Shown here: piece after piece, positions 451-33,307 of the stretch | Layout: every line of letters starts with the position of its first letter | Position numbering within the stretch: the stretch's first letter is position 1 | From: Cystobasidiomycetes sp. EMM_F5 | Lineage: Eukaryota | Length of the DNA stretch: 64,000 nt | Direction of reading: 5' to 3' | NCBI GenBank assembly: GCA_051047955.1 | Contig: JBPGPT010000001.1 | Location: forward strand, 1-64,000 | Notes under the pieces: model-generated | The model's database searches: none | What the model was told of the DNA's origin: nothing | What the model saw: only the letters and a program-made list of their open reading frames with translations | Made by a program: the position numbers and the translations under genes

Positions 451-1141
451 GCCGGTTCTATCAGGCGAAAATATCCTTGACGAACCGTGATGCTAACTTA
501 CCGATACTATCATCCCATCGTCCAGTTTGGACTCAGGCTTGAATACTTATTAGACTAGGAAGTCTGACGTTCTGTCGCTGTGGACACCCACGCCTCACAT
601 GAGCACGATATTCAGTTCTCTCTGCAAAAAAAGTCTGCAGATTATTCGAGAAGTTCCTCTGTACTTCAGTCGCCCTGCGTCATCGATGAAGCCGCGCCAG
701 TCAGAGATAGCGATACTTCAGATGGGGACAGCATATGCGGCGGGAAAACTCGATATCGGAATCATCGAGCGTGTGACTTCATTCCCTCTTGTCTCCAAGA
801 TCCGTACTTTGCATAGAAGGTGCACCACATAATCTTCTTCTTACAATGCCTCTTACTCGACGCACGACTGGCAATCGATTGGTAAATGAGATATCTGTAT
901 GAAGCGGGAAGGACGGCACGGTATCTCAGCATAACAAGATGTATGTGATCACCCTGTCACCTGACGGCAGATATCCAACGGTAAAACGCAATGCGGTAAA
1001 ACGTCATGAAATGTCAAGCAGGGAAATGCAAAGACTGAAATGCACAACGCCCTGTTTTGTTTTTTTTTCCAAAAGGCTGATGAGTCGATCTTTGCGGAAT
1101 AGCTTATACAGTGATACCCACGGAGTCCGCTACGTGAAGGA

Positions 1142-3108
1142 CTAGTCCTCATCCCAATGACCTAGCTTCTTCGGCGGCGCAATGCCGGAAGCACGAGAGA
1201 CAATTATAGACTGAAGCCCCAGAAAAGTTAGCGTCATTACTTGCACCTCCTGTACAATTGAAGAACCTACGTCCACTCGCAACACATTGATTGCAGCTTC
1301 AGTACCGTAGCGTACAGCCCACAGTGTCGCATCCATGAGGTCGAATATACCTGCTGCTGCTGCATCGAGTACACCTCCGTTTTCGCCTTCAACATCAACG
1401 CCCATGCTCCCTGCCCTGTCTGTTGCGTGCAAGGATAAGAGTCTGGCAACGACTTCGGTTGCATCCAGTCCAGCATTTTCTGCGAGCGTGCGGGGTACGA
1501 CTTCGAGAGCTTCGGCAAACCGTTTTATGCCATGTTGAGCCAGACCGGGAGTCCTTTCTCCAAGTTCCGCAACCTGCCTGGCCATCGCCAATTCAGTCGA
1601 GCCGGCTCCAGGAATCACTCGCGGATCCTTCAGTATAGACTTGACGACATTGACACCGTCATCAATTGCTCTTTCGATATCGTCCATTCTGTTGGTAGTG
1701 GCACCGCGAATAACGATCGTGGCGGTACGAGTTTTGTAGCCCTCCTCCTCTTGACGAAACACCGTTACCCTGTCACCGGCAATTTCTATAGTTTCCACGA
1801 CGTCAATTGATCCAGCTTCTTCAGGGGTGGGTGCACCCAGTCGAGCAAGAGGAGTTGCTCCTATCACGCGACACAGGCGTCGCAAGTCGAATTTCGAGAG
1901 AACCTTGACTACCATGATGTTGTACCGGTTCAGATAATGAAGCGCGAGCTCGCCTACGGCCGATCCAGCAATGACCACAGTCACTCCAGCGTCAGCGATC
2001 TCCTTGATGACTTTTTCTAGGTGTTTTTCCTCTCCTCGGCTGAACCCTAGCAAATCGTCCGCGTTCTTGAGTAAAACTGTCCCTTTGGTTTCTGTTTGAG
2101 CCACGTCGATCCCGCTGGTATACACCGCCACTTTTCCTTTTCTTGCGTGTTGAACTTCTCCTTCTGGTTCTCTCCCAAAGACCATCCCTGCGATTACTGT
2201 GCTCTTCTCCAGACTACCTCCCATAATCTTCACTACACGAACGTTGTCAACATTGAAGTCTGATGCTTTGGCGGGCATGACGAGCAGGCTCGCTTTAGAG
2301 ACTAGCTCGGCCAGAAAGTCTTCTTGTCCGTATTGCTTCGCAGCCAGCACCGATCGTAGAGGTTTGGACAATGTTTCTTGGGTGAGAGGTAAAGGGAGTG
2401 TACGGATTTTCAGGGCTGACGAACGATCGCATAGATAAGTTTCGATTCAGGGCTCTGACGAGCTCGTCCACGTACAGTTTAGCGCTTCTTCAGCCTTTTC
2501 CCGTGCAAGTTCGTAACCAGCGATGATTTCCGATGGATGTAGGCCGACAGTAAGGAGATACTCTGCCTTTCGTAACAGTTCTCCGGCAAACATGAGTACA
2601 AAGTTGGTCCTGTCTCCCATCTGAGTGATTGAGAAGCTTGCAATTCAGAGGACAGGCCATTGAACTCTGAAGAACGAACTAACCTCCGCCTCTTGTTGCT
2701 GACTGGCCATGACCAGGACCTTGGCAGCAGGGTGAACAACCTCCAATTCTCGTATGATCGTGGCAGCATCGTTTGTTACAAATAGTCGCTCCAGGTGCTG
2801 TCATCGGAGGCCGATACACCGATACAATGTCAGATTTGGTCAGACGTAAGCTTGTGACTACGTGCAACCTCTCAAGTGTTGGCGTACATTGATAACCATC
2901 TTGTTCCTTCCATTTGGACCGAATGATGTCCTGACTATCTCGGTAATCTGTCCCACAGCTTGAATATTTCGAATGACCGCGTCCTCAATCCCAGACTGGA
3001 ACGAGTAGCCATCTTTGAACAGGGACGGACCACTTGAACTGCAGTCAGCATGAACGTCTGCGATTGTCTCACGTATTGCACGTACGCTCGCGGGATTTTC
3101 AGCGACAT
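1142..3108 (-). CDS. CCT8: T-complex protein 1 subunit theta (multi-exon)
   Basis: Spliced MSLKIPRA...TSFGPNGRNKMVIN/HLERLFVTNDAATI; FNVDNVRVVKIMGG, DDIERAIDDGVN and a C-terminal WDED. Confidence 0.95.
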
Positions 3109-3666
3109 GGTCTTATGGCAAGAGGCAACGTTGATGCCGCGCCAGCTTTTACGAATATTAGGCGTTGAAAGCTAACAACGATGCAAGCTGGATCAATGTC
3201 CAGGAATCCTTACAATACAGCTGCGATGATGCAACCCATGGCTTGACAAAACATGCAGAATTTTGGCATAACGCAAAGAACGGTAATTACGGCCTGAGTG
3301 ACGCGAAGAGGAAAAGCGACAGGGCTCCCAAGCCTCTGCAGAGATGTAATCCAATGACCAACGAAGTCGCTGTTTGTCAAAGGCCGGCGAGTAGATAACG
3401 GAAAGTGTATGTATTTGTGGAAAGGGCATTCGTTCTAGCAGCAAGTTGAGCGAGTAAGGATTCATACGTTGTGCGGACGGAGAGAGAAAAATGATGTCGT
3501 ATGAGCGGTAATGGCTGGTCACAGCCGGGCAATTTGATTACTGTGCCAAAAATGTCGAGGAAGGAAAGCCAAACACCATAGCATTCAGATCAGGGATCAT
3601 CGTAGCTGTGACGTGGCAGCATTCAAGTATCGTCGAAGCTGTGACGTAGGCGTGTTCGAATGAGAG

Positions 3667-4458
3667 CTAAGGGAGCCAGAGTGCCTCGAAAACGTTGAGC
3701 CACTCCGTCGCCTCCGTCCCGAGGCGATCAAAATTGTCATTCCACCCATCGATGATGGCCTTGCGATGATGCGGATACCAGACTATGCGGTAGTAGTATG
3801 CCGCAACTCTCAGGCATCTTGCGCCTATGTAGCTCGGCGTTATCGACAAATAAAGGAAGTGCAAAGCTGCAAAAACCTTTTGGCCTTGAAATCGAGCTGT
3901 CGGAGATGGCTGAGTCTGCTCCGTTGCAGTAGTGAATGAGTCGTGCCCATGCTCCTGAAGCGCTACGGTATTGCCGTTACTTGTTCTTCGCAACCATGCT
4001 GCGAGTCCGGCACTCCAAGGCGAGGAAGGGTTTGAACGATCGTAATCTTCCAGTTCTTGCGCGAGTCTTGCGTATATGCGGAACCGCACCTGGAAGTCGC
4101 GCCAAAACGCGGCATCAGATTGGGTAAGCGGGGCGTGTGTCCGGCTCAACACGAAATCTCTTCGATCAGGGATAGCACGAGTCTTCCTGACCTGCGGGGA
4201 TGTTTCGTCGTAGTTAGTCATTTCGACCGCTGAGGGTAGATGTCTTACGTCACCGACAGTACTTTGACATTGATACCGACTTCGTGCAAAGGCGTCTATA
4301 TGCATAGTCCTTATTTTGGTTACGCCCATCCACATGGTGGCTAGTATAACGGTACCGATAAGAAATGACGACCAGGAAGCGTTTGCCAGTGACAGAGAGG
4401 TAAGTACCGTAGTGGGCACACTTGGAGCGGGCATGCTAGAGTTTGCCGGCTCTGCCAT
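3667..4458 (-). CDS. Hypothetical protein with an N-terminal hydrophobic (TM-like) segment
   Basis: 263-codon ATG ORF; segment SSFLIGTVILATMWMGV; no recognised motif. Confidence 0.55.
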   Translation of the reverse strand: MAEPANSSMPAPSVPTTVLTSLSLANASWSSFLIGTVILATMWMGVTKIRTMHIDAFARSRYQCQSTVGDVRHLPSAVEMTNYDETSPQVRKTRAIPDRRDFVLSRTHAPLTQSDAAFWRDFQVRFRIYARLAQELEDYDRSNPSSPWSAGLAAWLRRTSNGNTVALQEHGHDSFTTATEQTQPSPTARFQGQKVFAALHFLYLSITPSYIGARCLRVAAYYYRIVWYPHHRKAIIDGWNDNFDRLGTEATEWLNVFEALWLP

Positions 4459-4688
4459 AGCCTCTGCCTGTACGATATAACAGTGGTATTGGCGTGAGAG
4501 TGGACCCGTAAGGGCTCATTGTGAATTCCTCTGGCATGGTCTGCTTGTTTTGATAAACAACTAGCTGAGGGGTCGTCAGGGGGTTCGAAGGCTTCGAAAA
4601 TCCCCTCGCCATCCAGTTTGGAAGGGCATCCACAGGAGTTTCCGGATTACCGCAAGCGACGGAGTTTGCCTTGTCCCGAACGAGGAAG

Positions 4689-5319
4689 ATGTACAGCGTC
4701 AACGTGTGGCTGTATGCTGGTGTCGCCTCTGCTGGCCTGGCCGGACTCGCGGCTGGCGCGATTCGCTACTTCTCTACTGGCAGATTCCACGAAGATAACG
4801 CGTACGAGCCGGTACACGAGTTCATATGTGAGCAGGAGCGGCAGCGTATAGCGTGAGCGAAACAGTGAAGCGTTCTGGACTCTGGCTTACTGTGCTTGTC
4901 ATCTTATAGCGATGCCTTAGTCTTGCTCGACAAAGTCGGAGACTTGGACCTGCCTAATGGTAATCGTGTCCGGTCGCTCCAGTGGCATGTCATTGTGCGT
5001 ATAGACTGCTTGCGGACAAGACACTAAGAATTGACGTGAACTGCCCTGTGTACCTGCACAGCCTGAAATGGCGGAAGTCTTTAGGCGACTCCAAATCTGC
5101 CTTGATCATGAAGGATGCACTAGGGCACAATACAGTCACATCCGTCACAGCATAGACATCTGGTATGATCAATTGCGAGGTCTGCTGCAGGGATTCATGC
5201 AGGGTGACCACGATGTCAAAATTGTCTGCGAGTTCCACGACAGACGAGCATACTGGCTTCGACAGACCCTGCCCCATTTGGAGAAGATGGAGTTTCTCAT
5301 TCGCCAAGTACAAGTATGA
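4689..5319 (+). CDS. Hypothetical three-exon protein with an N-terminal hydrophobic segment
   Basis: ATG 4689 MYSVNVWLYAGVASAGLAGLAAGAIRYF; introns GTGAGC..TAG and GTGCGT..CAG join it in frame to the 5068-5319 ORF. Confidence 0.55.
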
Positions 5320-5583
5320 CTGCATACCCTAGCCCACCGCTTATGTGTCAGAGGACGTCACTTAACGCAAGCCCTCGGTTCATTCGAACTCTCACTCGAC
5401 CTGTACTTGCACTCTGCCGAAGAACACGCAGCGGCGGCCCTAGTCGCCTTACAAACGGTCAACGTCTCCCATCGAGCTGCACTCGTCTGGACATTCGCAT
5501 CAGAGGACGGCTATTTCGTTACATAATTTTCGAGATAATTGTGAACCTGCCCGTTTCAACATGTATCGCATGCAAGACTACCT

Positions 5584-7043
5584 TCAGGAGAGCTGCGTCC
5601 GCGTCGCCTGCGTAAAGGCTGCACTATAAGATGCCCCCTCGCCGCAGCTTTCCTGACGGATCTGCTCACACTAGAAAGGTGACAAATGCGTCAGCATGGG
5701 ATGCGGAGCTTGCTGCAGATAGCGGTCTCACCTCCGGCAACCATTTTTTGATCTGCTGGATGCGTTTCTGATTCGCAGGATGCGTAGAGAGGAAGTCAAG
5801 GCCTTGAGGACTGCCGCCTTCCGCTTGTTGCATGCGCTCCCACATGCGGGCCGCTTCTCCCGGCTTGAAGCATGCTCGACTTGCGAGCTTCAACCCGATC
5901 TATAGGAGACACTTCAGTACCGCCTGTCTACGGTCGACATTGTCGCTCTCACTCGATCAGCTTCCGACTCTGCCGCTCTACTGTTGGGTAGCTGCAATAG
6001 AAGCCCGATTGCAGGAGAAGTAATTCCGGCATCGATACCCAGCAGTAAAGCCAGCCAACTCAAGGCAGCGTAGACCTTCTGAGACGACATTTTCTCGCCT
6101 GCGTGTCGCGCTACTTGATGTGCAACTTCGTGGCCAAGGACAGCGGCCAAGCCATCTTCGTTGGCACATACTGGTAGAATTCCGGTCTGACACATAAGGA
6201 TGAGTCACATCAAAGACCGCAGCTGGTTATGACGAGTCGTGTTTTCCTTACAAAAACTTCGATAGGGTCAGAGGTATGTAGCAAGCGCTTCGTGGGCGTC
6301 ACTTACCAAAAATTGCACCGTTTGGCAGGACAAAAGCGTTACGAATCGAGTCGTCTGCGATGACTCTGACTTTCCAATCTACTCCTTGTTTGCGCGCAAC
6401 TGCGTCCCATGAATCAGCAGTGCGCTGCAATATGCCTTGCTTGCCGTGCGTGGAGCTGTCCAGACCGCTCGCTGACAATATGCGATTTGCAATTCGTCTA
6501 ACGTATATTGTTGTTGGGTGGTTATCCGGAAGGAATCGTCCGTTGTACTGAGACATTATTTCCTGTGATGCCTGTTACATCGCCGCATTTCAGACCGCAG
6601 CAGTAGCCTGTGTAAGCGTGTCCAACTTACGGCATCTCCCATTTCGCGCTCGGACACCTCTGTAACGTCCATAAATCGCCAGCGACCTGTCTCTGTTTTC
6701 TCCAGGTGATACACTGCGTGTGTATTCATCAGTCTGGTTGTTTCTCACGTCACGCTACATACTCACCATAGTACACGCCTCCCCCAGACGCGGCTATCCA
6801 AACGACCGGCGGCGTTCGGCGGACCCTGGCTGCCAAATCACTGCCGAAACGAGCGTTGAATGGTGTGTTTTGCTGCTGCCCGAAGTGTCTGTAGGAAGGG
6901 GCGCGCAGTGGATTGGACCCGTGAAGCCTACGAATAGTTTGTTGTATAGTAGCCGGCCTAGGCTGCAGGCGGCATTGCGGGTGCAGAAAGTTCAACAAGG
7001 ATGGACGTGGTAGAAATCTATCTCTACGACCTAATGACCACAT
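5584..7043 (-). CDS. OMA1: Mitochondrial M48 metalloendopeptidase
   Basis: NAFVLPNG, LAAVLGHEVAH (HExxH), LPNSRAAESEAD and FLSTHP motifs; Arg-rich presequence-like N-terminus. Confidence 0.92.
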
Positions 7044-7327
7044 TAGTGGAGCAAAGGAGGGTTCCGGTGCGTTTCGACGGAATGCAAATTGCTTACCGCT
7101 CGAGCAACAGCAGCGATGATTTGAAACCGAGCCTTAGCTGAAAGCAAACAGATTTTGACATGAGCCAAACTTCTACAGCCAGCAGATCCCGCAAGCTAAT
7201 GCTCTCCGGAATTCTGTACACCACAGTCCCTAGCTCAATCCACGGGCCAGCCCCGGCTTGAAAGGCAGCATGCATTTAACATGACGCGGGCAGATGCGCC
7301 ATGGCATGTGTGGTGTAACCCTTCACA

Positions 7328-9213
7328 ATGCGGCTTGCGATCTATCTTGGCTTGACTGCAACTGCCGCCGCCATATGGCCTGCTCCCGAACTGGTTGAAG
7401 ATGGCACCTCAAAAACAGTTCGCCTTCATAAACAGTTTCGCATTGAGGCGCCCGACTGTTCGATACCCCAAGATGTCCGACAAGCTATCAGGAGCGCGAT
7501 GGGGCACATTTATGAGGATGATATGCGGCCACTCCGTTCTGACGAGCATCAGCTCGCTCTGCAAGCTCTGCATGCAGGGCCGCCTTTATACCTGCTCAAG
7601 CTGCATCTCCCATGCTTCGGGAAGATTCCATCTATTGCAGAGGAAGTGAACGGACCTTTGAAAGACCTCCGTGAGAAGGAGACGTACGAACTCGTCATAC
7701 CTGAGAGCGCATCAGAGGCACGCCTGTTCGCGAACTCCACCGTTGGCTTACTCCGGGGCCTCCAGACGTTCGTCCAGCTCGTATATACTGGTCATTACCG
7801 ACAGACTGTCAGATATCTGCTCGATCCCCCACGATGCATTCGCGACATGCCTGCCTTTCCAGTTCGGGGTTTACTTCTCGATACCTCCCGTCATTTCTAC
7901 CCTCTCCGTGTACTACGTCGCACCTTGATCGCGATGTCTTGGTCTAAATTAAATATGTAAGCAACTTAATCACCATGATGAGTCTGCGCCGACTCTGCAA
8001 GACAGCTTTCATTGGCATATAACAGACTCGCAGAGCTGGCCCTTAGAGGTAGAGTCATACCCGGACTTATCGCGTAACGGAGCTTATTCAGAACGAGAAA
8101 CCTACAAACGGGCAGAGGTTCAGGCGCTCGTCAAATTTGCAAACTCTATCGGAATTCAGGTGATCGTTGAAATTGATTCGTACGTCTGCCGTAGTCGTTC
8201 GGCGTATACTAATGTTGTTTCTTTACGCAGTCCAGGTCATACTGCCAGTATTGGCGCAACGTATCCGGATCTGGTTGCGTGCCTGAATTGCGAATGGCAG
8301 ACATTCGCAGTGGAACCACCATCCGGTCAAGTCAGCTTTGCAGATAATTCATGAAGGTAGCTATCATCACTCACGCGAATGTTTGCTAGATCCGCATCAC
8401 GGAACCGCTGGCCGTTGAGCTAATGACCAACATCATAAGGGATACCGCGGGGATACTACCGGGACAGTATTTCGGGACAGGTGGCGATGAAGTCAATATC
8501 GCTTGCTACACCGAGGACCACATCACACAAGCCGCACTCAAACGGCGCAATGAATCCCTAACTGCAGCTCTACAGCGCTTTGGGGACGCTACAAGTCTCG
8601 CCGTTCGCGACACGGGAAAAATTCCCGTGATTTGGGAAGACCAAGCTATTGGTTCGCGTGCAATCCGACTCAACGACTCAAGTGTCATATTAGCTTGGCG
8701 AGGCATGGAGACTTTGCCAAAGCTCATGGCGATGGGACACCACCTGATCTACGTCCCTTATCAGCAAGCTTACTTAGACTGCGGGAGAGGGGGATGGATC
8801 GAGACAGGGGCATCATGGTGTAACTACGTCTCGTGGTGGGATATGTACGACGATCCGCTCTCGACACATTTTCCGCCGGAGATGTTACAGGATGTCTTGC
8901 TTGGAGGGATGGCTGCATTGTGGTCTGAACAGACAGACAGTCAGAATGTCGATCAGATACTATGGTATGCTCTCTTCCCCCCAACGCGTCACAACGGGCT
9001 GAGTACAATTTCTTCAGGCCCCGAGCCGCTGTCGTCTCCGAGCTATGGTGGACAGGAGTGGCACGAATGAATGCATCACTGCGCAATGTTTCGGATGCGC
9101 TGCAACGTCTACACGATTTTAGGTATCGGATGGTCGCTCGAGGTGTCGGTGCAACCCCGCTACAACCACATATGTGTGCGATATTCCCTTCTCGCTGTAC
9201 GAAGATGAAGTAG
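7328..9213 (+). CDS. Secreted beta-N-acetylhexosaminidase, GH20
   Basis: Signal peptide, IWPAP, RGLLLDTSRHF, FHWHITDSQSWP, GGDE catalytic pair, YLDCG, ALWSEQ. Confidence 0.92.
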
Positions 9214-9567
9214 CGCGGCGCATATTGGAGATCCCTGGTCCGCAATTGTAACATACATCAATTTAGCAGGTGTACCTTGCTGCCAGACAGCCTTTAATCG
9301 CGCGCCATATTGCCACGCTTAATGGAACGCTTCTATGAAGCGTGCGCCGGTGTTCAGCCAGTTCTATAAGAGACCATGATGAAACCTGGCATCTTAAATT
9401 ACTCCAAGCTTGCGAAGAAATACTGTCCCTCACAGCCTCTACTTGTGTTGGAAGACCCAACCTTCACCGATGTTCGCAATACTGTCAGACAGTAGCATGG
9501 TCGCCGAGTGCCCTGACTCGAAGTATGCTAAACAACCACTTTGAAGCATGAGCGCGCCGGATCATTT

Positions 9568-10599
9568 TTAACTCTGCTGTAACTCTTTTTCAGGCTCGCT
9601 GCCAGCTTCGCTGACTTGCTTATCGTGTGACAGCACCTCCGTCAGCTTATCTGCTACCATCCCATGTACGAGCGACGTCGGGTGTAGACCGTCCAGCCAA
9701 ATCGCTCCTCCCCGAGCCTTGCCAGCGTCCAAGGCATCGATGCCATACTGTGCAGCATTGTCCATCAAATCCGTAAAGAGATGCCAGCTTGGGAAGATGC
9801 GAATGTCAAGAGCCACATCTCGCATATTTCGAGTGAGAGCTTGTTGTGCTAACGCTATATTCCATGTCTTGATCCTTGAGTGATGGCGCTCGTAACCGGG
9901 AGAGCTCACAAATAGAGGCTTAGGTTTGCGCATGCGGGGTGGCACTTCAAACAGAACAAATCTGCGCAGCCCTGATTCGATCAAGGTGTCGACTGCTTTT
10001 GTGAAGAGGCGGTTCACCACATCGACGGGGTCGATTGCAAAGCAGCAATCATTGATACCAATCCAGAGACCTTGATCATGGCTTTAGCCAAGTATTGACA
10101 GTGTAGAACATCACTCACACGCAAGGGCACTGCGCCGATCAGCCGCTGCTTGTGGGCTCTGCAGGTATGCCTGCCAAACGATATCAGTATGTTCACCAAT
10201 TCGCAGCGACTCAGCATGGTATGACACACATTGACCTGGCTCACGAGGCCATCCGTGGTTGCTCCACCATAGGCGTAATTGTATACAAGCATCGGCACGC
10301 CAGGTTTTTTCGCCTGGAAATGCATGACCCAGTTTGGTTTGCCTAACAGCTACTGATCAATCGTAGCGCCATAAGAATCTCCGAGTCAAGCAGTCTTACC
10401 TGGCTCATTATAGGTATCTTGCACATCGGATCCAAAAGGATTGTTCAGAGTGGGTTCCGAAAATCGGCCTCCGAGACTTGTTTGACAGTACGAGGCTCCG
10501 AAGCTACGAACGTGATGGTTCAGTGCTATAAGTCTACCGCCCTACTGCGCGAGAAGTGGAAACCCACACTACTAAGCGATCAATGCTATCCAGCGACAT
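9568..10599 (-). CDS. SGNH/GDSL hydrolase, CE16-like acetylesterase
   Basis: Spliced MSLDSIDRLVVFGASYC...NNPFG...GKPNWV...YNYAYGGAT...WLDGLHPTS (DxxH). Confidence 0.8.
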
Positions 10600-26889: not shown

Positions 26890-29800
26890 TTACTGGGCAT
26901 GGCCATACTGACTATGTGCAGGGGAATTATCGAATGGACTGCGGGCATGCGGCAATTCCATGGGACTTTGCGGCAGGGGGACACTGGCGGCCAAGTCTTC
27001 GTCTTCGCGCGGTGCTAGTTGATTTGCAGATAGAACTTCGCGATCCGAATGCGCGTCAGTATTCTCCTCAGCCCGGGCAAAGTCGATGGCGGGAAAATAA
27101 ATAGTCGGCTCGTCCGCGGCCTCACCAGCGATACCGGTCGCTTGCTCGGCCTGTCCTTGCTCCTCTTCTTCCTCAAATGAAAAGAGCCATTCTTGCTGAG
27201 TGATGAGGATAGATACGAGCTTGATAGAACTGTTCAGGTTTCTTACTGCACAAGCGAGGTGAAAAACAAAAACGAAATAGAGCCTATTTTCAGTCAAACG
27301 CAAAGATCATACTAATGCCCTTTGAGCTCACTCAAAAGCTCTTGATGATTAGGACCCAACGGTGGTTTGAATACTGTCGGAGCAAACACCGTAGCTAGAT
27401 TATTGGCAGTCATGCCGCTGTATTGTTCGTATTCCGCTACCTGAGCCAAATGGCGGCAGAGGCGCTTGATGAGGTCAAAGTGTGGCTTGGGAAGAGTCCA
27501 GATAAGGTCACGAATAGTATACATTCGCAGCTCATACTCAGAGATGTTGCTAGCCTGCATGAAATCGATGTATGCCGGAAAGGCTATGATCTCGGGCATT
27601 TCCCGAAAAAATCTCTTGCACAGGTTTGCTAAATTGTGAACGTCGTATTTCCAAGGGGGCTGCGTCCGAATGACATCGGCAATCATTTGACCTTGATCAA
27701 TGGCAGTTCGCATATCACGAATATCGACTTCCGTTCCCGCCAACCGGTAAAGTCCGACCTGTTCCCAAAATGAAAGTACTGCATTAGCTTGCTCACCCCT
27801 GACACTGTTGCAGTATACCTACTTCTTGCAGTCCAGTACGTTCGATGTTGTCAAGCATTTGCATAACAACTAAAGGGACATCCGTGCCGTCGCGCGCGAC
27901 TAGTTGCAGAAGGTCCAGTCCAAACACAGCTGTCGCAAGAAGCCTGTCTGGAGCAGATTTTATGGCCTGCTGGTGGCCACTTGCGTGTATGGACAAGTCT
28001 TTGAGTGCTTCGTCACTGCAAATGGGCACGTAGCTTGCCCGCCTTTGTTCGATTGTCTTCCGAGCATCATTGAGCTTTGCTATCCACTCCAATGCAAGGG
28101 TGCGCGTTGGCGCCTGCATCACTACACGCTCTCCGTCGGCAGTGTGTAGCAAGATACAAGTTGAAGAGCCCTTACCGGCAATGGCAGGCAGCAGACTAAT
28201 ATTGGCTTCGGCCAATAGAACAGTAGATATTGGCGCCGAGGGAGTCTGACCAACTTCAATCCGAGCTCCTTCCGAGATTTTAAGACAGGTTTCTGCTGTG
28301 ACGCCACGCTTCATCGGTTGGCCATCGGATGGGAACAGAGTCATCGCGGCTCTGTGGGACTCCGACGGCAGCTTGTAGAAATCTAGCTTGGCGTTACCTC
28401 TCAAGATGGCGTAGAAAGGTCTAAAGGGTGTTTTTGTATCGGTAGAGGTTGACACGCTCAGCTCTTTCCGACCATCGGATGCCTTCTGCTTCCCCTTTAC
28501 GGAAGGCTTCGAAGCAGGACTGAGCGACGGCAAAGAAGCCAAAGGTGAGGAGGAAGGGGAAGCAGAAGGAGTGGAACATGTCGATTGGGCAGGAGAAGGC
28601 GAGGAGGTGTAAAAGTCGAAAGGCAAGCTGAACACTCGATACAGTGATGTTGAGCGTTTTGAGCGAGGTTTTGGAGGTAACTGACGCTGCAATATGCCTT
28701 GATGGAGGATTATCTGCGAATCTCGTTTATGAAGGCGGGTGGAACGAAGTGGCTGATTGACGAGATTGGACAGGAGGGGCTGGTCAGAGGGGGCAGTGGT
28801 ATTTGCAATTTGCGGGATGGAGTTTGCAGTTGATTTAGACTGCTCAAATTCGATAGAAGGCTTGTATTGTAAGGGATTTGCAAATTGTATGGGTGCTTCT
28901 AGGTGTACGTTCGCATGTGTAGACGACGGAGATGCCATTGATTCGATGAGAAGCGACGTCAGCTGAGAGCCGGACTGTGGTTGATGAGTGTCGCTCGACA
29001 ACTGCTCGGAGCTTCGACTGTTCCGCAAGCTGTCGTGAGCTGCCAGCGACATTCGCCGTTTTGCGGCTGGGAGAACCAGAGCATGACCGGAAGCATCGAG
29101 ATCGATGGATTTCCGGGCCTTGGCTTTGCTGGAAGCGGCGTGCGAATCTCCGAGACCTGCGGTGTAGTGGAAACGATGAGTAGAGAGATCGTCCACACTC
29201 TTCGAGTAGTGTCCTGTAGACATGACGCGCGTGTTCTGCCACGCACGAATGCAAGAAGGAGGGTCAGCTAGCTGATGTATTCTTGGCACATTAAATATCC
29301 ACCTGAAGGTCCTGCAACTTCGCTGCCGTGACACTTCGTCCCGACTTGACGCGGCTTGGACTGGGTTTGATAGGCTGCAACGGCGACGAAGATGATGCGG
29401 GCGTGGGATCTGCTGTGGTACGTCCGGAAGATGAATTCGACAGCGTGAAGACTGTACTTGATGACATTGATCGCGATGTCGGAAGCAGCCAATTCGACAA
29501 TGTCGCTATTGACTTTGTACGACGACGTCGTGTAGATTTTGCCAGTTCTTCAGTCTCGTCATCTTTATAAGTTGGAAGAGCAGCAGAGGGTAGAGATGCA
29601 GCTGGTGAGGTCAAGGCAGGAGCTTGAAAGGGAAATCCGTCTGTCGGGGATTTGGCAGAACGGGCTGATGTTGAGGCAGCTGGAATAAGGCTGGAATATA
29701 AATCGCCTTTTACAGACTGAGACGAGGAGGACGAAGCAGAAGCGGGTAGCGAGGTATTGTGAGCAGATTTTCCAGGCTGGGAGTGTGCAGAAAAAGGAGT

Positions 29801-30445
29801 GTATGGCGTTGTCGGCGTACGAGGAGCCAAAGGAGGCATGCTGAGGGAGGAGGAAGCCGAGTGAAGAGAGTTTGAATGACCGGAATTGCTCCCGCTTTGG
29901 CCAAGATTAGTTGTGATGCTTCTGTGGCTGTCGTGGAGGGATAGCGCGGGAAACGGCAACGGCGGTGGTGACGACACGCCCCCCGTTCCAAAGCTGTCGT
30001 TGGTACGCGTCCTTTCGAGCGACAAATCATTCATGGATGCAAAGCCCAGTCTTCCGCCCAACGAAGCGAATTGAGCTGTCCGCCGGTCTGACCGCTGTCG
30101 ATGTGGGTCGCGGTGAGCCGTGTAGTTGAAGATGGAGGACGGGGAGATGGATGACGAGACTGATTTGGAAAGATCGTTTGTATGTATACGATGCACATCG
30201 TGTGGGTGCTGTTGAGGGTGTCCTGATCCAGCTGTGCCGCCACTAGACGGAGCGACAGAGGCGGACAGAGCGTCGTTGCCCGACTTGAAGTGCTCCCGTC
30301 TGGCTGCATTAGACGGCGACGAAGGGAGGAGTGCATTCTTGAGCCGCGAGAGTAGGGTTGTGGATCCAGTCGACTGCCGGGGCTGGGTGTGGGTGCTGCT
30401 AGCGAGTCTGTCTTGGTCTGCGAGTACAGACCTGGAGGGTGCCAT
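26890..30445 (-). CDS. RhoGAP protein with a PH-like domain and Ser-rich N-terminus
   Basis: FYAILRG..LDFYK...EWIAKLN (PH-like); VFG, VPLVV, spliced VGLYRLAG, KRFFREMPE, MTANNLATVFAPT. Confidence 0.88.
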
Positions 30446-30927
30446 ATGCGACTGAGGGGGTTAGTAAATGCGAGGATAATGCTGCCGTCTTTGATACAAA
30501 TGGAGAGATTCAAGAGTGAGCTGGACTGCCTGCCCGTATTTTCCGTGTGCTAAAATGAGTGTGGGTGTGTTTCGTTTGACGGGAGCGAATGCAGCTGCAA
30601 CGGCGAACCCGCGCAGGGTCAACAGGGCACGGTGAGCATGTCGAGCGCTGCAGATGGCATCGTGTGTCGCATTTGTAGGATGGGGAGCAAGTCTGACTCT
30701 GCCCAGGTCTTTTGTGCCAGCACCAGTCGCGGTCAGCAGCCCGTGCACTGACGCCCCGCTGACTTTGCCCAAATATCCTCGATCAATCACCATGTGGGCA
30801 GCTGCTGGCACCAAGCAGCCTTTATGAATACGCCAACGCTCGCAGGATGGGCAGTCTCTGTGCTAGAATGACTGGTGAGTTCAGTCTGCTCCTGTCAGTC
30901 TATCGTCGACGGCCCCTGCGACTCTTC

Positions 30928-31033
30928 GCCAAACGATGCAAATTTCAATCCAAATCTCTTGAACAATCCAACTCGTAGCCCTGCCACAAGTCTGACAGGG
31001 AGTGCCGATAAATGGTTATATGCATCTGATGAC
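30928..31033 (+). ncRNA. Box C/D snoRNA, SNORD69-like guide for LSU G2917 (S. cerevisiae numbering)
   Basis: TGAACAATCCAAC (30960-30972) is complementary to LSU GUUGGAUUGUUCA; boxes C ACGATGC, D' CGTA, C' GTGCCGA, D CTGA (31026). Confidence 0.72.
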
Positions 31034-31200
31034 ATACGCTTGATTATCACTGCGATGGGAGCGCGTTGAGCATTATGCTGATTGTACCATGCCACTCTTT
31101 TCATCGTCAGACCGCTGTCCAGTGAGTATTCTCTGTTCGACAGCACCCACGCACCACCCGGTTCCCTCCTTCCGTCTCCCACTCCGCTTCCACTCCACCC

Positions 31201-31307
31201 GCAAAGATTATACAAACAAGATCAACAATAGGTATTCCTCGGACTGAAGTGTACTGCACTCTGTTGAGAATTGTCTGTTTATACAAAAGTTTCAGCCTTG
31301 TATGAGC
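31201..31307 (+). ncRNA. snR41: Box C/D snoRNA, snR41-like (18S Gm1126 guide)
   Basis: AAGTTTCAGCCTTG (31287-31300) is complementary to 18S CAAGGCUGAAACUU, and the D+5 rule gives G1126. Second guide TAGGTATTCCTCG precedes D' CTGA; C' is CTGTTGA. Confidence 0.8.
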
Positions 31308-31451
31308 TTCCTCTCCTTCCTCAAAGTCGTATTGTTACCACTCGTAGAGAAAGGTGCTGATTGTGATTTCCTTTCGAATAGGCAAGACGCACGTTCTAAA
31401 GTAGGTTTACTCCCCTCTATTGTACGCCTCCCCTTCCCAGCTTCCTCCTCC

Positions 31452-31628
31452 TACCCAGATGATAACGCTTAACGGGCGGTCATTAATTAAGTCCAACGCA
31501 ATGTCATCACGACCTCAGCGGGTCAAGCCCTCTTCGTCTTTCGTCCCCTAGTGTACAAATTGGGGATGGGCGTATGAGGGTGATGGTGTTGCATGTGTTG
31601 AGAGTTTCAAGTTAGGCTCTCTGATCTA
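31452..31628 (+). ncRNA. snR70: Box C/D snoRNA, snR70/SNORD43-like (18S Cm1639 guide)
   Basis: C CAGATGA; guide ACGGGCGGT (31472-31480) complementary to 18S ACCGCCCGU; long G-U-rich hairpin 31498-31592; C' GTGTTGA; D CTGA 31621. Confidence 0.82.
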
Positions 31629-32070
31629 TATCTATGCCTCTCTTACTCGTCTTGCGTGGGGAATGGCTGCCAACATCTTGCTGACGTAAAGTGCTTTCCC
31701 AGCAGACATATCGAATTCGGCAGTTCAACGTGTAGATACTACAAATGTGTCCAGTGTATCATATAGCCAACCTTGTCATTGCAATCTCCTCGAATCAAGT
31801 CTATGATGCTATAGAATACAGTGCCCCCGATCACCGCACGCGCCCCCTTCGCGACTTGAGAATGCCAATACAGGCATTGCCATATGCCATACTGCACCAC
31901 TGGCCTGACCCAGCCAGATAACAGAGCACTTACTTCCTCCCTCCACGCTCATTACTGTGTCTGTACGACACACTGCACCTCTTGCACCCGCCTGAACCGG
32001 TGTTGACGTTCAAGCCAGCCTCGTTAATTCGCAGCACATCAAAGGACATTTAAAGGACAGCACACTCGCA

Positions 32071-33307
32071 ATGGCAGCGACGGATGCGCCAGTACCTACA
32101 GTGAGTATCGAGACACCGTCACTGGCTCCTTGTCAGCTGCGATGTTCACCATCTAATTATACATTGTCGGTTCGCGAAATGGATACACAGACCCCTCCTT
32201 CGACCTATACCTTTGGAACAGCATGGGAGGCATCCAACTTTGCTTCTTTAGCTAACGGAGGCGTGGCCACAAAGCAAATTGCAAGCACGTACGGTCCAGA
32301 CGCGGACGCAGCAACCCCGACAACTCCGACTTCCCAACTCACAGTCTATTACGGCGGCAACAACGCCAACAACACTGCCGCACCCCAAATATCAGGCTCT
32401 GCCTCTTCGTCGTCTTCTGTATCTTGGTGGAACAAGCTCAGCAATGGGACAAAATATGCTATATATGGTGGAGCGGCCGGAGTGCTTGTAATTCTGATTG
32501 TACGTATTGTTGCACATCGCAAATGTCGTTTTTAGCTGACCGATTGTATGACATTGTTCACGTCAATGACAGGCCCTCATCGCATTCATTGTTGTTCGAA
32601 GGAGACGCAAGAGACGAAGCGTGATTGAAAATCGCAATAAGGCAATGCGGATGACGTGGGTCCACCTTCATCTGACAACTGACCTGGTGGGCACGCTGAA
32701 TGCTCAATTCGCCCTCCTCAGACAACGCTCTTCTTTCGCTTCGCCCATGCATTCTCGAGGATCAGCATCAGCAGCAACGCTAGTTGCAGATCAAGATACC
32801 TACACACCGAATGAAGATACATCTGGCAAGCTATACACACCACAACAGTCTTACAATGACGGCTACGGCTCCAAGTCTGGAATGGCCTTCAACGATGCTC
32901 AGTCTGTGCACTCTGTTCCTCCGATCTACGGGCAGTTCAGCAATGGCAGTCACGTTCAACTACAACAACAGCAACAACATCAACCACAGTCTGGTAAATC
33001 TTTCCGCGAAGATCGGTCACAGCAGGCCAGGCACTCTCCCTACCCGCTTTCAAATGGATACGACGATAGCTATGCGTCAGTAGGCGACGACTCGATGAAT
33101 AGCGAATCGCACGGAGCGTACGCCCCTTCATACGCCCAAAACCACCAGCAAAGCTATCATCAGCCCGAGTATCAGTCCGAGTATCCGTCAACCAATCGCT
33201 ACCAGGCGTACGCGCAAGACGATGATCTCGGCGCGTCACAGTACAGCACGAGATACCAGCCGCAGCACGTTCACTCTGATGGCGGTAGACAGTACCGGCA
33301 GTACTGA
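32071..33307 (+). CDS. Single-pass membrane protein with a T/S/A-rich N-terminal region and Q/Y/S-rich C-terminal tail
   Basis: Spliced TM YAIYGGAAGVLVILIALIAFIVV followed by RRRRKRR; three GT-AG introns. Confidence 0.75.

Follow-up and report, generated by a model that had tools for sequence, protein, structure and literature searches.

A probable small nucleolar RNA host gene with three long introns, each bearing one box C/D snoRNA, in Cystobasidiomycetes sp. EMM_F5

The stretch of DNA analyzed here (the window) comprises 64,000 nucleotides (nt), positions 1 to 64,000 of the forward strand of contig JBPGPT010000001.1 from Cystobasidiomycetes sp. EMM_F5 (GenBank assembly GCA_051047955.1). 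A 1.6-kb gap (30446-32071) separates two divergent protein genes, and on its plus strand lie three long introns bounded by consensus splice signals, each containing the boxes and guides of a box C/D small nucleolar RNA (snoRNA). With a probability of roughly three in four (0.76), the locus is a snoRNA host gene whose three introns each carry one box C/D snoRNA: in order, a CD17-like element, an snR41 homolog, and an snR70 homolog (Table 1). Transcription, splicing, snoRNA release, and ribosomal RNA (rRNA) methylation at the locus are predictions from the DNA, and the terms "non-coding" and "spliced" are applied to the host in the same predictive sense.

The three introns and the two micro-exons between them, which the earlier note on this DNA had described from the letters alone, were found with the lengths that it gave; intron 3 would be 305 nt long if the AG at 31704-31705 were used instead. 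For comparison, the three introns read in the Hsp70 gene of the window are 68, 58, and 57 nt long, with the 5' splice sites GTGAGA, GTAGGT, and GTTAGT and, in two of them, a CTGAC/CTGAT-type branch site. The introns of the locus are therefore about four times the local norm while using local splice signals, as the earlier note had observed for their length. A regular-expression census of intron lengths across the window was uninformative, its result lying near the shuffled background. The joined exons contain a junction-crossing open reading frame (ORF) of 11 codons (ATG at 30868), the only one that the earlier note had listed, or of 18 codons if the in-frame ATG at 30847 is used. Further short ORFs are present in the leader, and a 58-codon ORF starting at 31745 would be included only if exon 4 extends that far. 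Counted by plain coordinates from the final base of box D, the branch-point A lies 52, 55, and 60 nt away in introns 1, 2, and 3, so that the spacing of 50 to 56 nt given in the earlier note holds for the first two introns and not for the third. By the script measure used for related loci, the distance is 56 nt for the snR41 homolog of the window, and in 61 relatives it has a median of 57 nt (quartiles, 55 and 60; range, 52-78).

Table 1. Features of the putative host locus and its neighbors (window coordinates) and of the rRNA reference repeat L032 (coordinates of that contig)
Feature	Position	Strand	Remarks
Upstream neighbor ORF	27793-30460	-	Very serine-rich; ATG near 30445
Putative exon 1, 3' part	30790-30874	+	Ends at GTGAGT 30875; ORFs of 11-18 codons only
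Predicted intron 1	30875-31110	+	236 nt; GTGAGT, branch GCTGAT 31077-31082, CAG 31108-31110
Candidate snoRNA 1, CD17-like box C/D	30929-31034	+	Ends approximate
snoRNA 1 box C	30934-30940	+	CGATGCA
snoRNA 1 D' guide	30960-30972	+	TGAACAATCCAAC
snoRNA 1 degenerate D'	30973-30977	+	TCGTA
snoRNA 1 C'-like	30993-31001	+	TGACAGGGA
snoRNA 1 box D	31026-31029	+	CTGA
Predicted exon 2, micro-exon	31111-31121	+	11 nt, between CAG (31110) and GTGAGT (31122)
Predicted intron 2	31122-31381	+	260 nt; GTGAGT, branch GCTGAT 31356-31361, TAG 31379-31381
Candidate snoRNA 2, snR41 homolog	31198-31310	+	Rfam match below gathering
snR41 homolog box C	31204-31210	+	AAGATTA
snR41 homolog D' guide	31229-31241	+	TAGGTATTCCTCG
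snR41 homolog D'	31244-31247	+	CTGA
snR41 homolog C'	31262-31269	+	TGTTGAGA
snR41 homolog D guide	31287-31301	+	
snR41 homolog box D	31302-31305	+	ATGA
Predicted exon 3, micro-exon	31382-31400	+	19 nt, between TAG (31381) and GTAGGT (31401)
Predicted intron 3	31401-31702	+	302 nt; GTAGGT, branch GCTGAC 31680-31685, CAG 31700-31702
Candidate snoRNA 3, snR70 homolog	31452-31629	+	Ends approximate, ~175 nt
snR70 homolog box C	31456-31462	+	CAGATGA
snR70 homolog D' guide	31472-31480	+	ACGGGCGGT
snR70 homolog degenerate D'	31481-31484	+	CATT
snR70 homolog hairpin loop	31551-31560	+	GTGTACAAAT
snR70 homolog C'	31596-31603	+	TGTTGAGA
snR70 homolog D guide	31610-31620	+	AGTTAGGCTCT
snR70 homolog box D	31621-31624	+	CTGA
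Putative exon 4, start	31703-31800	+	Directly after the 3' splice site; ATG of the next ORF is at 32072
Downstream neighbor ORF	31996-33307	+	ATG 32072; early GTGAGT intron of its own
L032 18S rRNA	4255-6054		Rfam
L032 5.8S rRNA	6261-6414		Rfam
L032 25S/28S rRNA	6544-10340		Rfam
L032 group I intron, inside 25S/28S	8881-9223		Rfam

Related loci were obtained with a metagenome scan for the 19-nt snR41 D guide plus box D, which returned 113 loci, and pairing with small-subunit (SSU) and large-subunit (LSU) rRNA was read on L032, a complete fungal rDNA repeat. The element in intron 2 matched the Rfam snR41 model (RF01218) over its full length, 1-111, at 36.1 bits (E = 3.8e-4; gathering score, 50) and the Afu_455 model (RF01860) over its full model length at 31.5 bits (E = 0.0079; gathering score, 48). 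Furthermore, AAGTTTCAGCCTTGTATGAGC and the Rfam snR41 consensus agree without a difference over 21 nt. On L032, the D guide forms 14 Watson-Crick pairs and one G-U pair with SSU 1121-1135, with G1125 standing fifth before ATGA, and the D' guide pairs with SSU 1571-1583 through 12 Watson-Crick pairs and one G-U pair. By its guide, box D, position, and full-length alignment, the intron 2 element is a predicted homolog of snR41, although not a curated Rfam member. In Neurospora crassa, CD9 ("snR41-II") guides 18S-Gm1122, and no second target is tabled for it (PMC2780460).

The D' guide of this snoRNA varies among fungi. A perfect complement of 10-12 nt to L032 18S 1571-1583 is present as the snR41-type D' guide in 43 of the 59 distinct copies (L059-L168), and the yeast-type D' guide, CCAATTGTTCC, occurs in only 3 of the 59. 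That of the window is not of the yeast A541 type, being complementary over 13 nt, with one G-U pair, to 18S 1571-1583. The 1571-1583 site has one variable base (G, T, or C) among the fetched rDNA loci, and the window guide differs from the ascomycete-like guide exactly at this base. Yeast Gm1572 is presumably guided by snR57, and the guide for 18S ~1572 may have moved into snR41. According to Luo et al. (2013, PMC3596301), no Euascomycete retains the snR57 intron in cluster II.

In intron 1, snoRNA 1 has the D' guide TGAACAATCCAAC, which pairs perfectly over 13 nt with L032 LSU 3338-3350, in what we take to be the helix bearing the A loop. Because the D' box (TCGTA) is degenerate, the fifth-nucleotide rule gives G3341 or G3342 as the target and permits no choice between the two. 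A model (R2) was made from 42 ascomycete-like sequences, excluding the window and the related locus L091, and was searched against both strands of these two (68 kb). Its sole match, at 30933-30977 (15.9 bits, E = 6e-4), runs from box C, with CGATGCA aligned, through the guide and D'; with filters off, the L091 copy was also found (E = 5e-4). In relatives, the layout of this snoRNA is ATGATGA, GAACAATCCAAC, TCCTA, TGAAGGA or TGCAGGA, ACTCTAGAATTAC, and CTGA. Spacing agrees as well, AACAATCCAA lying 325 nt upstream of the snR41 guide in the window and 275-512 nt upstream in most related loci. Judged by sequence, the snoRNA at the same position in the 42 ascomycete-like loci corresponds to N. crassa CD17, of the U45/HBII-210 type, and box C and the 13-nt D' guide of snoRNA 1 match it. 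N. crassa CD17 guides 18S-Am154 through D (counterpart, U45A/C) and 26S-Gm2875 through D' (counterparts, snoR34 and HBII-210) (PMC2780460). The U45-type 18S guide before box D, CTCTAGAATTAC in relatives, is not found in the window, where aaatggttatatgcat precedes box D instead; because this guide is lacking, snoRNA 1 is termed CD17-like rather than a full CD17 member. The same guide is present in most ascomycete-like copies and is also lacking in some relatives (e.g., L066, L067, L071, and L079).

Of the rRNA complements of 9 to 14 nt that the earlier note had placed beside D or D' boxes, four pair with L032 and stand next to boxes: the D' guide of snoRNA 1, which pairs with the LSU, and the D' guides of the snR41 and snR70 homologs and the D guide of the former, which pair with the SSU. 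A further candidate, CTGA at 30992 as a D' box with a 10-nt complement (11 nt with a G-U pair) to LSU 3248-3258, was rejected. Its guide, TGCCACAAG, was found in 0 of the 113 related loci, and the CTGA aligns with box C' and the internal stem of the relatives, within a CCCTG/CAGGG stem, and is probably part of box C'.

The element in intron 3 has the D' guide ACGGGCGGT, which pairs perfectly over 9 nt with L032 SSU 1635-1643 and places C1639 fifth before CATT; the fifth-nucleotide rule is thus satisfied for 18S G1125 and C1639. The guide core, ACGGGCGG, lies 184 nt downstream of the snR41 guide in the window and 134-242 nt downstream of it in most relatives. In addition, GTGTACAAAT is common to the window, L091, and the Rfam-confirmed yeast-type snR70 of L078. 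The hairpin around this motif covaries among 59 relatives, with both sides changing in 5 of 5 pairs and 87% of cells paired, versus 18-60% in slid controls. A model of snR70 (CD_61 in PMC5824354) built here, R1, matched the L091 copy (21.2 bits, E = 7.7e-5). It is mainly by its guide, the shared motifs, its position, and the bridge through L091 that the intron 3 element is assigned as a predicted snR70 homolog. The 11 nt before its box D, AGTTAGGCTCT (31610-31624 region), are identical in the window and L091 (oriented 2357-2371) and differ from those of ascomycete-like copies. This sequence had no match with up to one mismatch in any of the 55 fetched rDNA loci and may be a lineage-specific guide.

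The same snoRNA order, with one snoRNA per intron, a 5' splice site before it, and a branch site and AG after it, recurs in dozens of the metagenome loci. A blastn comparison of the locus with the 113 loci gave eight alignments, of which only that to L091, the one locus of the window's type, extended beyond the pattern region (72% identity over 127 nt). The window and L091 share colinear exact blocks of 12, 20, 21, 19, 11, 8, and 15 nt. The 12-nt block is the snoRNA 1 guide; those of 20 and 21 nt are both snR41 guides with box D; and, within the snR70 homolog, the block of 19 nt spans the guide and D', that of 11 nt the GTACAAA loop, that of 8 nt box C', and that of 15 nt the D guide plus box D. 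No alignment between the two was obtained for the exons and the remaining intron sequence, and with neither a long ORF nor alignable exons the predicted spliced RNA has the sequence character of a non-coding host. This footprint is the pattern expected of selection acting on the snoRNAs and not on the exons. The exon between the snR41 and snR70 introns, 19 nt long in the window, has 6 nt in L091 and zero length in 38 of 47 resolvable relatives. The ascomycete-like loci L061 and L070 exceed the gathering scores for Afu_455 and Afu_294, and L078, with snR41, snR70, and snR51 above gathering, is a cluster of the yeast type.

Downstream of the snR70 homolog, the window departs from most relatives. 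Of the 45 related loci whose downstream sequence extends for 520 nt or more, all but L091 carry the snR51 guide (44 of 45), and a search of the 64 kb with the two snR51 guides of relatives, allowing up to one and up to two mismatches, found no match. The Afu_294 matches above gathering, at 682-766 (minus strand) in L061 and 2702-2786 (plus strand) in L070, lie ~700 nt downstream of the snR41 homolog; the Afu_294 element of ascomycete-like loci probably corresponds to the "U55" intron, with which cluster III ends on its 3' side according to Luo et al. (PMC3596301), and Afu_294 had no match at its Rfam gathering score in the window.

Taken with these comparisons, the earlier note's proposal of an intron-encoded version of the snR41-snR70 cluster with no recognizable snR51 is supported by the two homologs, their recurring order, and the snR51 search. 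Its SNORD69-like front member carries the CD17 26S-Gm2875 guide, for which the N. crassa paper names HBII-210 as a counterpart (PMC2780460). On the Rfam and synteny checks that it suggested, the snR41 and Afu_455 models match intron 2, both below gathering, and the snR70 model gives nothing; snoRNA order and spacing recur in the metagenome loci, and the neighboring ORFs have no tblastn match there.

In the favored model, RNA polymerase II would make a precursor with at least four exons, each intron carrying one box C/D snoRNA ~52-60 nt upstream of its branch point. The C/D motifs would be bound by Snu13, Nop56, Nop58, and fibrillarin, and, once splicing has released the introns, the lariats would be debranched and trimmed by exonucleases to the protected small nucleolar ribonucleoproteins (snoRNPs); the spliced exons, having no long ORF, would probably be discarded. 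The first product would be CD17-like, with a target G 4-5 bases 5' of the A-loop G and equivalent to N. crassa 26S-Gm2875. The second would act, through its D guide, on the 18S G equivalent to N. crassa Gm1122 (presumably yeast Gm1126) and, through its D' guide, on 18S ~1572, and the third would act on 18S C1639.

The host might instead be a coding mRNA, that of the downstream gene, whose long 5' untranslated region would contain the snoRNA introns. The ORF of that gene lies on the same strand, 370 nt past the 3' splice site of intron 3, and has a GTGAGT intron of its own at its start; neither a polyadenylation site for putative exon 4 nor a second promoter could be placed between the host and its ATG at 32072, and many fungal box C/D snoRNAs are described in introns of protein genes (PMC2780460). 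Against this, the spliced leader would contain at least nine upstream ATGs and short ORFs, which would be hard on translation of the main ORF, and a pyrimidine-rich stretch of the kind typical of fungal core promoters stands just before the ORF, at ~31930-31960. Furthermore, other fungi are described as having a non-coding host for this cluster (PMC2780460, PMC3596301), and the downstream ORF has neither a Pfam family nor a match in the flanks of related loci. A Pfam search of five neighboring ORFs, including the long ORFs of both flanking genes, gave 0 families, and six neighboring ORFs compared with the related loci by tblastn, as a test of synteny, had no match. We consider a coding host unlikely.

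Several results weigh against the snoRNA host reading. No Rfam family reached its gathering score anywhere in the window, and Rfam snR70 (RF01238) had no match at E up to 10 in 30300-32300. R1 matched the window only piecewise, with one piece for the hairpin at 31547-31590 (8.8 bits; E = 0.24 in the 68-kb search and 0.024 in one of 7 kb) and another for box C and the guide at 31455-31483 (5.7 bits, noise level); with filters off, the latter scored no better than an unrelated segment at 29857-29884 (5.9 bits). All three C boxes deviate from UGAUGA, and two D' boxes are degenerate. The terminal stem is of at most 2 bp at snR41 in the Rfam alignment, and none was seen for the other two. L032 is not this organism's own rRNA, and the D guides of snoRNA 1 and the snR70 homolog have no convincing rRNA target in it. 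Obvious terminal stems are also lacking in related loci. At E up to 0.05, Rfam snR70 also misses the L061, L070, and L091 copies and scores 187.8 bits on the yeast-type L078, so that the model appears to reach only yeast-like sequences.

Complementarity by itself carries little, since the locus has ten perfect complements of at least 10 nt to the L032 rRNAs, and 84 control blocks (1.5 kb, both strands) mostly have 3-9, with the longest per block at 10-14 nt. Complementarity alone is not above chance; the guides are credible above chance because they are conserved in other fungi. The locus could be a decayed or chance look-alike, in which case the degenerate boxes would signify that at least one of the three elements, most likely snoRNA 1, has ceased to form a working snoRNP. 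Besides the non-canonical boxes and the loss of the 18S U45-type guide of most ascomycete-like copies, the 16-20 nt before the snoRNA 1 box D have no rRNA match in L032 and are not common to L091. However, conservation with L091 is confined to the guides and boxes, in otherwise unalignable surroundings, which suggests selection. The boxes C are CGATGC, AGATTA, and AGATGA and the boxes D are CTGA, ATGA, and CTGA, with the kink-turn GA dinucleotides retained in every one; ATGA is accepted as a box D in PMC3596301. None of the three window snoRNAs (30934, 31204, and 31456) has U at the start of its box C hexamer, and L091 likewise has C in its place in all three (CGATGA, CGATTA, and CGATGA); ascomycete-like copies mostly have TGATGA or TGAAGA. 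Decay or chance resemblance is a very improbable explanation.

Least probable of all is that an endonuclease and exonucleases cut the snoRNAs from an unspliced polycistronic precursor and that the splice-like signals go unused. Saccharomyces cerevisiae and its near relatives do obtain snR41-snR70-snR51 from transcripts that are not spliced (PMC3596301), and the yeast-type L078 carries all three snoRNAs by Rfam gathering scores. Here, a consensus 5' site precedes each snoRNA, and a branch site, spaced from box D as in the relatives, and a 3' AG follow it. The genome is rich in introns, a real Hsp70 gene shows the same signals, and the Basidiomycota clusters are all described as intronic (PMC3596301).

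The snoRNA host reading places the locus among clusters already described. The arrangement is "snoRNA gene cluster III" (snR41-snR70-snR51) of fungi (Luo et al. 2013, PMC3596301), which in N. crassa comprises CD17, CD9, and CD6 (Liu et al. 2009, PMC2780460). The cluster is reported as intronic in non-coding hosts of Euascomycetes, Basidiomycota, and Rhizopus oryzae (Zygomycota), the hosts in both papers are without long ORFs, and 83 predicted introns across three clusters were verified by expressed sequence tags (ESTs) or reverse transcription-PCR (PMC3596301, PMC2780460). Luo et al. also described shrunken or missing internal exons and, in 42 ESTs, stepwise 5'-to-3' splicing (PMC3596301), and the N. 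crassa paper remarks that the distance to the 3' splice site is important for processing (PMC2780460). The window resembles these clusters in having one box C/D snoRNA per intron, in the order U45/CD17-type, snR41, and snR70, with no long ORF in the predicted spliced RNA, tiny internal exons, and the conserved spacing from box D to the branch point. It differs in having neither snR51 nor a downstream Afu_294-type snoRNA in its 64 kb, in lacking the 18S U45 guide in its first snoRNA, and in having exons of 11 and 19 nt, versus zero-length exons reported for all Euascomycetes (PMC3596301).

With the S. cerevisiae snR41-snR70-snR51 unit, the window shares the snR41 D guide, the ATGA box D, a GATTA-type box C, the snR70 guide core, the GTGTACAAAT motif, and a similar large size. 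In contrast, the yeast unit has an unspliced transcript (PMC3596301), carries snR51, and has no CD17-like member, and the yeast-type D' guide pairs with L032 18S ~537-547 instead of ~1571-1583. The N. crassa cluster III host has been likened to UHG/gas5 (PMC2780460). Like mammalian hosts of the UHG/GAS5 type, the window has poorly conserved, putatively non-coding exons and intronic snoRNA products, one per intron; the snoRNA content is different and the exons of the window are far smaller, so the analogy is one of organization only. With human SNORD69, which we take to be HBII-210, and plant snoR34, the likeness is the 13-nt complement to the same LSU helix as the CD17 26S-Gm2875 guide; this comparison concerns guide function only, the degenerate D' not fixing the exact methylated base.

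A cluster of this kind is thus already published for fungi, and the locus is ordinary, with no new mechanism. One point goes beyond the literature examined and is mildly new, namely, a CD17-like snoRNA before snR41 in a Pucciniomycotina basidiomycete. Luo et al. treat the U45-associated intron as a Euascomycete addition to cluster III that other fungi lack, and propose "excision-and-insertion" as the route of its gain (PMC3596301), and one main-text sentence of Canzler et al. assigns family CD_17 to Pezizomycotina (2018, PMC5824354); the passages concerned thus confine the intron and the family to groups that do not include the present host. Tentatively, and with a chance that we put just short of even, the CD17-type intron upstream of snR41-snR70 was already present in the ancestor of Ascomycota and Basidiomycota and is not a Pezizomycotina invention. 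If so, the Pucciniomycotina copy keeps the ancestral A-loop guide, and the 18S U45 guide was later added elsewhere or lost here. Instead of such an older linkage, a convergent guide may have arisen in a neighboring intron.

The locus would add three rRNA methylation guides and a four-exon non-coding gene to a stretch that ORF-based gene callers leave empty, and none of the three snoRNAs is recovered in this lineage at Rfam gathering scores. The locus also provides a Pucciniomycotina data point for a cluster that serves as a model of intron gain, intron loss, and exon shrinkage; with micro-exons kept, no snR51, and a CD17-like snoRNA outside the group given in the literature, it bears on the claim that snoRNA introns "jump."

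Elsewhere, the window encodes TCP-1, RhoGAP, eIF2A, and a family-20 glycosyltransferase in addition to Hsp70. The eIF2A ORF had as its best named relative a protein from a Cyphobasidiales metagenome-assembled genome (58% identity), followed by those of Sporobolomyces, Rhodotorula, and Mixia (44-46%) and then of other basidiomycetes; among the 120 proteins listed, none bears an ascomycete name, in agreement with a source in Pucciniomycotina. Two further candidates were rejected. A C-like/D-like pair at 31803/31905, considered as a fourth snoRNA, lacked an rRNA complement of at least 10 nt, an Rfam match, and any equivalent in L091. In putative exon 1, a stretch of 13 nt at 30801-30813 is perfectly complementary to SSU 558-570; it has no box beside it, is not shared with L091, and was attributed to chance, and it lies within a small GCTGCT/AGCAGC inverted repeat. 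A 16-nt block shared by the window and L091 gave 61 matches in genome contigs, 0 of which were followed by the snR41 D guide, and these were judged to be chance matches. Finally, the tandem eukaryotic rDNA repeat L032/L035 stands on a 24-kb contig filed under a Bryobacteraceae metagenome-assembled genome, and one Virgibacillus assembly has the fungal ITS5 (internal transcribed spacer) primer site on dozens of ~400-nt contigs; in each case, eukaryotic DNA or amplicons appear to have contaminated a prokaryote assembly.

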